This document shows positions 2 through 284 of a stretch of 346 nt of DNA, piece by piece. The DNA comes from Escherichia coli. Lineage in GTDB: Bacteria; Pseudomonadota; Gammaproteobacteria; Enterobacterales; Enterobacteriaceae. Positions within the stretch are counted from its first letter, which is position 1. Each line of letters starts with the position of its first letter. The position numbers and the translations under genes are program-made. A model generated the notes under the pieces. The model ran no database searches. It was not told where the DNA came from and worked only from the letters and a program-made list of their open reading frames with translations. The DNA lies in NCBI RefSeq assembly GCF_003334335.1, contig NZ_QOWQ01000211.1. One strand, written 5' to 3'.

Positions 2-127
2 GAGCAGGCGATGTTTACCAAAGGTCTGGAAATTCATGTCAGACAGCGCACGATGAAAAAAGAGATTGAAGCGCTGGATGATGCGGAAGCTATACTGGCG
101 TATAAAATCGGTATCACAGACGGCTGA
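2..127 (+). CDS. 3' end of a protein-coding gene of unknown function, probably 5'-truncated by the window edge; C-terminal sequence EQAMFTKGLEIHVRQRTMKKEIEALDDAEAILAYKIGITDG*
   Basis: Frame 2 is open from the window edge to TGA at 125-127, followed in frame by TAA at 128-130. Frames 1 and 3 are closed early (TGA at 67-69 and at 54-56). Codons are mostly enterobacterial-preferred (CTG x3, GCG x4, GAA x3, AAA x4, GAT x3) and first codon positions are purine-rich. In-frame ATGs at 11-13 and 53-55 lack a credible Shine-Dalgarno upstream, so the true start is probably upstream of the window. The opposite-strand frame is also open but reads as F/R/C-rich low-complexity sequence and runs through the downstream hairpin. 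Confidence 0.6.
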   Translation, partial: EQAMFTKGLEIHVRQRTMKKEIEALDDAEAILAYKIGITDG

Positions 128-157
128 TAAAAAAGAGAGGGGCAAGCCATAGCCCCT
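128..157 (-). terminator. Intrinsic-terminator-like stem-loop plus U-tract, oriented for - strand transcription
   Basis: Stem 138-143 (AGGGGC) pairs with 152-157 (GCCCCT): 6 bp, 5 of them G:C, with an 8-nt loop at 144-151. On the + strand it is preceded by A6 (129-134), so on the - strand the stem is followed by CUC then UUUUUU then A. There is no T-run after the stem on the + strand, so it is not a canonical terminator for the upstream + CDS. Confidence 0.4.
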
Positions 158-219
158 TGCTACAAATCTACAGCTAAATAATACCCTGGTTGAGGCAAAT
201 TATTCGGTAATAAAAATTT

Positions 220-241
220 AAGGAGGCACAATAGCCTCCTT
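220..241. promoter_or_regulatory. Perfect 8-bp inverted repeat (stem-loop) pairing a consensus Shine-Dalgarno with its complement; function unknown
   Basis: 220-227 AAGGAGGC pairs perfectly with 234-241 GCCTCCTT; loop is 6 nt (228-233, ACAATA). On the + strand 219-226 reads TAAGGAGG, the full complement of the 16S 3' end, but no ATG/GTG/TTG follows within 5-12 nt. On the - strand the same SD is followed by TTG (231-229) and GTG (229-227). On either strand the SD would be sequestered by the anti-SD arm. On the - strand the stem is followed by AAAUUUUUAUUA, so the U-run is offset by 3 nt and it is only a weak terminator candidate. Confidence 0.4.
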
Positions 242-257
242 CACCCCTGTCAAAGAT

Positions 258-284
258 AAAAAAACGGGGAGTGCGTGCTCACCG
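258..284 (-). terminator. Weaker intrinsic-terminator-like element oriented for the - strand (imperfect stem directly followed by U7)
   Basis: Stem 265-271 (CGGGGAG) pairs with 278-284 (CTCACCG): 7 positions with one mismatch (G268/A281), loop 272-277. On the + strand it is immediately preceded by A7 (258-264), so on the - strand the stem is followed directly by UUUUUUU. The stem is short and imperfect, hence low confidence. Confidence 0.3.

Follow-up and report, generated by a model that had tools for sequence, protein, structure and literature searches.

The stretch of Escherichia coli DNA analysed here (346 nucleotides, hereafter the window) carries three A-runs, each followed by a G-rich hairpin arm, at the 3' end of a gene on the + strand. 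The question that these elements raise is whether the hairpins act on the strand of that gene or on the opposite strand, and to what end.

The tfa-eib spacer and its three modules

Positions 1-127 (+ strand) are the 3' end of tfa, a DUF4376 tail-fibre-assembly gene (orf-191 of the P-Eib prophages), as assigned from the RefSeq and GenBank annotation under matches of 85%-99.7% identity. The last 41 sense codons and the TGA stop, at 125-127, lie within the window. The gene has been given several names (DUF4376 protein in RefSeq, tail fibre assembly protein in phage records and orf-191A in AF151091), and the full protein from locus L001 matches PHROG 1141, 'tail fiber protein', with an E value of 2.7e-78. 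The remaining positions, 128-346, are the first 219 nt of a non-coding spacer of 681-797 nt, at the far end of which is eib, a YadA-like immunoglobulin-binding adhesin gene that is cargo (a moron) of the lambdoid Eib prophages. The order after the spacer is eib, orf-156, orf-60 and, in some prophages, an autotransporter gene, all on the + strand.

In E. coli chromosomes the window is matched at 99-100% identity in eight genomes and at ~88% in nineteen more, and the match lies in a lambdoid prophage in every case; identity to phages PhiR5 and PhiR12 and to the P-EibA prophage fragment AF151091 is 85-88%. Of 5426 complete E. coli genomes, 27-28 contain the two halves of the region, 125-243 and 244-346, at 70-71 places; neither half was seen without the other or outside the eib context. 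The spacer was absent from the plasmid collection, where only two distant partial matches to tfa were detected (query positions 1-102, 74-76% identity). The idea that the modules are dispersed repeats, such as REP-like or multi-copy palindromes, was rejected on the confinement of both halves to the eib context. Several small ORFs, namely 34-150 (-), 66-152 (+), 160-231 (-), 275-343 (+) and those called over the spacer in phage records, are judged spurious on present evidence.

Two further features are found at the eib end of the spacer. A 25-codon upstream ORF (MRAARYQIFFIYPMLNCFICIQIIL; L001 6721-6798, ~590 nt to the right of the window end) has GGAG 7 nt before its ATG and ends 10 nt before the eib start codon; it differs in L003 by one non-synonymous and two synonymous changes, and could be a candidate eib leader peptide. 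About 100 nt upstream of eib is a perfect 11-bp A+T-rich inverted repeat (GAAATTCCGAA ... TTCGGAATTTC; L001 6668-6678/6695-6705), annotated as a stem_loop feature in AF151091 at 3777-3814, which may be an operator or a structure of the 5'-UTR.

The sequence-only reading had picked out three strings of an A-run plus a G-rich arm, spaced by about 80 and 50 nt. Both the strings (ATAAAAAAGAGAGGGG at 127-142, TAATAAAAATTTAAGGAGG at 208-226 and ATAAAAAAACGGGGAG at 256-271) and the spacing (81 and 48 nt, start to start) are borne out, and in each module the G-rich run forms the 5' half, on the + strand, of an inverted repeat. The modules so formed, M1 to M3, are described here as - strand elements. 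M1 (128-157), directly after the tfa stop at a distance of 1-10 nt, has arms at 138-143 and 152-157, with 6 bp (5 G-C), an 8-nt loop and an energy of -11.5 kcal/mol, followed by CTC and T6 (134-129); on the - strand RNA the stem, 157-152/143-138, is AGGGGC/GCCCCU, with a CUC spacer and U6 after it. M2 (208-241) has arms at 220-227 and 234-241, with 8 bp (5 G-C), a 6-nt loop and an energy of -13.7 kcal/mol, followed by AAA and T5 (217-213). M3 (257-284) has arms at 265-271 and 278-284 and a loop at 277-272, with T7 (264-258) directly after the stem; in the window allele this stem consists of 3+3 bp, with a mismatch at G268.A281 (U.C on the - strand) and an energy of -5.3 kcal/mol.

The stem-loops fall within the range known from intrinsic terminators (~5-12 bp, short loop), and M1 and M3 also have the U-run of such terminators, with M2 marginal on account of the AAA before its U5. 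The - strand tails score 2.0-2.7 or 2.0-3.5 for M1 (modest in either case), 0.9-2.5 for M2 and 5.3 for M3. Judged by sequence criteria, M1 and the form of M3 that is common among relatives would be classed as Rho-independent terminators, and M2 would fit that class loosely.

A built-in scan of the window for terminator-like elements found M1 and M2, compared with 0.2 +/- 0.4 elements in shuffled sequence, and missed M3. Under a looser rule, by which a single hairpin of -5 kcal/mol or better must end 0-4 nt before at least five T, 128-346 contains three elements on the - strand and none on the +. Among 400 dinucleotide-preserving shuffles, 361 contained no such element, 38 contained one, a single shuffle contained two and none contained three, so the three-element pattern is real and not a by-product of composition.

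In whole-region folds of the window allele, the M3 arm is used elsewhere, with GGGG at 266-269 pairing with CCCC at 244-247 or taken up in another + strand hairpin. One alternative + strand hairpin, at 267-300, has an energy of -14.5 kcal/mol (z = -2.9), depends on G.U pairs and competes with the M3 stem; its - strand counterpart reaches only -6.5 kcal/mol. The + strand arm of M2 is itself a perfect Shine-Dalgarno string, AAGGAGG (220-226), with no start codon at a usable distance in the window allele, and its partner on the - strand RNA, CCUCCUUA, is the 3' end of 16S rRNA. In the other allele an ATG directly follows AAGGAG and opens a 26-codon frame. This likeness to a Shine-Dalgarno and anti-Shine-Dalgarno pair is probably a coincidence.

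Hairpin stability is similar on both strands, and the G.U wobbles counted over 15 related hairpins (5 on the - strand, 3 on the +) favour neither strand clearly. The + strand sequence 3' of the three stems (TGCTACAAA, CACCCCTGT and AGAGCATGA) is essentially without a U-tract, and the + strand tails of M1, M2 and M3 (UGCUACAAA, CACCCCUGU and AGAGCAUGA) score 1.2, 0.06 and 0.06, respectively. Since the sense side has no U-tract, the modules are considered unidirectional; a bidirectional terminator was set aside on the same grounds, together with the count of zero + strand elements. A tandem array of - strand hairpin and U-tract elements had been proposed for this region, and that proposal holds in that all three modules can be read in this way and the + strand has no U-tract. 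Their supposed equivalence does not hold: M1 alone is conserved as a canonical terminator, the T-run of M2 is displaced and M3 is damaged in the window.

It is conceivable that the hairpins instead act in the sense RNA, either by stabilising the 3' end of the late tail mRNA or marking where it is processed, or as weak sense terminators after tfa, in which case the A-runs would be incidental. Such a role is favoured by the position of M1 directly after the tfa stop, by a hairpin stability that is equal on the two strands for all three modules, and by the fold of 120-346, which departs further from shuffles on the + strand (z = -4.2) than on the - (z = -3.0). The near absence of a U-tract from the + strand tails stands against a role of this kind, on which the tfa flanks of other phages also bear.

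Variation of the array among Eib prophages

The Eib-family set comprises 65 copies retrieved from genomes, phages, IMG/VR and gut metagenomes. In these, 125-243 is present as two alleles that are ~75% identical, and 244-346 (to which no strand applies), the eib-linked left edge of the spacer, has one near-invariant form, with 97-99% identity in all copies. Because of this difference, M1 and M2 can be said to travel with tfa and M3 with the eib side, and the long tfa-eib spacer is composed of a tfa-linked piece and an eib-linked piece. The switch in identity, at ~241-244, is at the 3' foot of the M2 hairpin, and it looks like a recombination junction at a hairpin. The P-EibA prophage has a further variant at 242-262, with its own small hairpin, CCTGAC-CCT-GTCAGG.

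A comparison of the two alleles shows none of the 12 positions of the M1 stem changed and two of the 16 in the M2 stem. In the loops, five of eight positions are changed in M1 (where loop length goes from 8 to 6 nt) and three of six in M2, or 8/14 for the two together, and between M1 and M2 the count is 14 of 54. Over 128-241 as a whole, 2/28 stem positions are changed versus 28/90 other positions (one-sided Fisher p = 0.007). Because this is a single allele comparison, with no compensatory double changes, the conservation of the stems is suggestive and not strong; only two to three haplotypes are present in the Eib set.

The individual modules differ in how well they are preserved. The T-run of M1 is kept in both alleles, as T6 after CTC in the window and as T7 after C in the other allele. 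In allele B the M2 hairpin is down to -6.4 kcal/mol and its T-run is lost (UAAUUAUCAUU). M3 has a perfect GGGGAG/CTCCCC hairpin in ~49/65 copies, with 6-7 bp and energies of -10.1 to -12.5 kcal/mol, followed by T6-T7; the window allele, with A at 281, is the minority form, and the scanner that missed M3 in the window detected it in L003 and L069.

Since identity jumps at ~243, the array has been assembled from two modules, and it may be asked whether it is anything more than a functionless by-product of modular recombination, in which M1 would have closed a leftward unit formerly next to tfa (as in 1720a-02), M3 would have arrived together with the eib moron and M2 would have arisen by chance. 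Such an origin would account for the rise from 75% to 97-99% identity at the foot of M2, for the decay of M2 and M3 in some alleles and for the 1720a-02-type phages, in which the same position faces - strand genes directly. We nevertheless consider it unlikely, given that the stems are conserved against a diverged background and that elements of the M1 kind are kept in many flank types, irrespective of which way the following gene points; even relic elements, moreover, would still terminate.

Stacked terminators in so short an interval had been thought uncommon, a view that the sister prophages do not support: they have four such hairpins in the same spacer, with more further to the right. The long-spacer (795-797 nt) and short-spacer (681 nt) variants are set apart by a 115-nt indel (about 5343-5457 in L003), which carries a fourth - strand terminator-like hairpin, GGGGAGCGTGCCGTCTCCCC followed by T6, and another is found after orf-60. 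On the strength of these two additional elements, hairpin stacks are usual in this prophage arm. The indel starts with a 7-bp inverted repeat, GCAATAC...GTATTGC. Four - strand terminator-like hairpins with GGGGAG/CTCCCC arms after an A-run lie within ~3 kb in unrelated flanks (L003 5256-5283, 5426-5453 and 7924-7951; L069 5677-5696), and one of them closes a - strand dinI-like gene. An origin of M3, M4 and the orf-60 hairpin as copies of one mobile element was rejected, as the three resemble one another in the A-run and the stem arms only and stand in unrelated flanks.

Flanks of tfa beyond the Eib family and candidate sources of leftward transcription

P-EibC, GER2, 1720a-02 and phiSTEC1589 share with the window only the coding part of tfa, and each has its own A-run and G-rich hairpin, of differing sequence, directly after the tfa stop; in phiSTEC1589 a second A-run and hairpin follow 250 nt further on. 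For relatives of tfa, 80 IMG/VR loci encoding them (L073-L152) were surveyed, 67 of which have enough 3' flank and fall into 23 sequence-unrelated flank types. A hairpin of -7 kcal/mol or better with a T5, within 45 nt of the tfa stop, is present on the - strand in 11 of the 23 types and on the + strand in one. Shuffled flanks gave 0.20 and 0.01 per 23 types on the - and + strands, respectively, and a control window 150 nt further to the right gave 0/23 on either strand.

In these flank elements the distance from the tfa stop to the start of the A-run is 1-6 nt, and RNA made leftward would therefore terminate immediately outside the tfa frame. The gene that follows on the right is on the - strand in some types and on the + strand in others. 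Among the - strand cases are P2-like types, where tail genes converge, and the 1720a-02 type, with a ykgJ-like gene and then host potB or int; the hairpin at the analogous place in 1720a-02 closes a - strand gene block. The arrangement is not universal, since lambda has a long hairpin after tfa (orf-194) with neither a T-run nor an A-run.

This independent and repeated pairing of an A-run with a hairpin is the main argument for antisense termination as the selected function, since a hairpin acting in the sense RNA needs no A-run. The L130 flank type and GER2, where the hairpin also has a T-rich tail on the sense side, would fit a sense function. For such a function the 5' A-run is superfluous, yet it accompanies the hairpin in 11/23 unrelated flanks where 0.2 would be expected, and we regard a sense-strand role for the window's hairpins as quite improbable.

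Leftward termination presupposes transcription from the right, for which the gene map provides candidates. PhiR5_1 has a lambda-like map, with integrase, excisionase, exo/bet/gam, kil and cI on the - strand at the left end. On the + strand are cro to Q and the lysis, head and tail genes, and this strand ends with J-lom-stf-tfa-spacer-eib-orf156-orf60; tfa is the last tail gene in these lambda-like prophages. For 3-7 kb to the right of the array all annotated genes are on the + strand, and no - strand gene ends at the array in Eib prophages. The candidate - strand sources, 2.6-7 kb to the right, are the dinI-like gene, int across attP and host potAB. The dinI-like gene, near the right end, has its own promoter-like site and a GGGGAG...CTCCCC+T6 hairpin, to which M1 and M3 are comparable in hairpin energy and tail score. 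By analogy with the lambda-like layout, we infer that after excision early-left transcription past int would run on the - strand into this arm.

In the L001/L011 lysogen, the host genes potA-potB, together with a ykgJ-like gene, are directed into the right end of the prophage on the window's - strand, and the interval between that end and M2/M1 contains only one weak - strand scanner site. The junction itself was observed at L011 19893-22343 (NZ_AP045172.1), where potA-potB and the ykgJ-like gene adjoin the prophage and are transcribed towards its end; the same neighbours stand directly after tfa in loci of the 1720a-02 type (L090). The prophage appears to lie inside or beside the pot operon.

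A local source of leftward RNA has also to be considered, as the modules had alternatively been taken for structured segments of one - strand RNA. Such a non-coding RNA would have its promoter further to the right in the spacer and M1 as its terminator, and might regulate eib or tfa. The - strand fold is indeed more stable than shuffles (z = -3.0), a weak promoter-like site on the - strand, TAGTCA-17-AATAAT, is found ~230 nt to the right of M3 and is kept in short- and long-spacer variants, and prophage antisense RNAs near tail genes do exist (PMC7067206). In scans of both spacer strands, however, sigma-70 promoter hits were no commoner than in shuffles, so a local - strand promoter is without support; the 2025 Eib paper does not describe a native eib promoter. 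Against Rfam 15, the window at E <= 10 gave three chance-level matches only, the best with 15.7 bits versus a gathering score of 38, and 25.8 kb of three loci (L001, L003 and L009) gave no match at the gathering threshold. An internal M3, perfect in most copies, would truncate the RNA, the M1-M2 interval diverges freely (14/54), and covarying long-range pairs were not seen. With no Rfam match and no promoter-like site above the shuffle rate, we find the suggestion of a single - strand RNA very hard to credit.

Antisense RNA over tail genes has been described in a related setting. STnc6030, an antisense RNA of the Salmonella prophage BTP1 to tail/injection genes, excludes superinfecting BTP1 (PMC7067206). 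This case offers an analogy only, in which such RNA can harm a phage, and it gives a reason for insulating tail genes.

The array as a putative leftward insulator and its place among known systems

Taking mechanism and role jointly, we think it probable, from the sequence and its context, that the modules are intrinsic terminators facing leftward, by which the late tail operon is protected against antisense transcription. The observations in its favour are the anatomy of the modules, their non-randomness, the conservation of stems with turnover of loops, the recurrence of the arrangement in unrelated flanks and the orientations of the genes. Others count against it: the U-run of M2 is 3 nt from the stem and the element is not conserved as a terminator in allele B, M3 is weak and is out-competed in whole-region folds, the M1 tail scores are modest, the G.U count singles out neither strand, the conservation of the stems comes from one pair of alleles, the annotated genes for 3-7 kb to the right are all on the + strand, and the lambda hairpin at this position has no T-run or A-run. 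That the array insulates the + gene from transcription entering from the right had been proposed from the outset, and in this the placement of tfa on the + strand, the identifiable - strand sources and the recurrence in flank types all concur, with the reservation that the modules are not equivalent.

In the mechanism envisaged, RNA polymerase moving leftward on the - strand would transcribe a G+C-rich inverted repeat and then a U-run; the hairpin would form in the exit channel, the rU:dA hybrid in the active site would be weak, and the transcript would be released. M1 would be the conserved and effective element, at which leftward transcripts would stop 1-6 nt before reaching the tfa stop codon and becoming antisense. 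M3, at the left border of the eib cargo module, would be another element of this type, partly disabled by one base in the window allele. M2, with a stable hairpin and a displaced U-run, would be at best a pause or a low-efficiency leftward stop. The array would then work as an insulator where the late tail operon (+ strand) meets the cargo/attachment-site arm, with incoming - strand transcription expected from the early-left int operon once the genome is circular, from the dinI-like gene and, in the lysogen, from flanking host genes. Termination itself and its efficiency, like the source and cost of the antisense transcription, are what we infer for such an insulator.

For annotation, the array would show where, on the right, the late tail operon of Eib-type prophages ends. 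More broadly, because an antisense-facing terminator-like element is present at the tfa stop in about half of the unrelated flank types, the survey suggests that temperate phages routinely insulate late genes from transcription of the cargo/attachment-site arm or of the host. Such insulation bears on how prophage cargo, the Eib adhesins for example, could be expressed in lysogens without mutual disturbance of the cargo and the phage structural genes. A bolder proposal is that antisense-facing terminators at the stop codons of tail-fibre-assembly genes are a repeatedly reinvented, selected class, and that the Eib array also tunes a leftward non-coding transcript from the long eib upstream region; to this we attach little credence. 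If it were true, the rationale for the class would be the cost of antisense RNA over tail-fibre genes, which could lead to self-exclusion or to transcriptional collision with the late operon. What is present here is a familiar element in a sensible place, with no new mechanism; the mildly new aspect is the frequency of backward-facing terminators at tail-fibre-assembly genes.

The modules resemble the intrinsic terminators of E. coli and its phages in the G+C-rich stem (6-8 bp), the loop (6-8 nt), the U-run (5-7) and, for M1, M2 and the common form of M3, the energy (-10 to -14 kcal/mol). They differ in that they face against the only annotated genes nearby, in the 3-nt offset of the U-run in M2 and in the stem mismatch of M3 in the window allele. 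Tandem terminators at the ends of units read by antiterminated polymerase are exemplified by rrnB T1-T2. As in that case, several terminators stand in series within ~160 nt, and the plausible incoming polymerase, that of a lambda-type early-left operon, may be resistant to termination. Unlike rrnB T1-T2, the elements come from two recombined modules and not from one designed unit, and no N gene is annotated in PhiR5_1.

The boundaries of lambdoid morons provide another comparison, a moron being a cargo gene with its own promoter and terminator. The array is situated at the junction of tail-fibre and cargo genes, and eib, which AF151091 describes as prophage cargo, is followed by a sense terminator-like hairpin of its own. 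The array itself, in contrast, lies upstream of the moron, faces in the opposite direction and does not terminate eib. Finally, the bidirectional terminators of convergent genes also place, at the 3' end of a gene, an element predicted to stop transcription in the opposite direction. The array differs from these in having no sense-side U-tract, and its neighbours in the Eib prophages are co-directional and not convergent; in 1720a-02, genes of the int side do converge with tfa at the homologous position.
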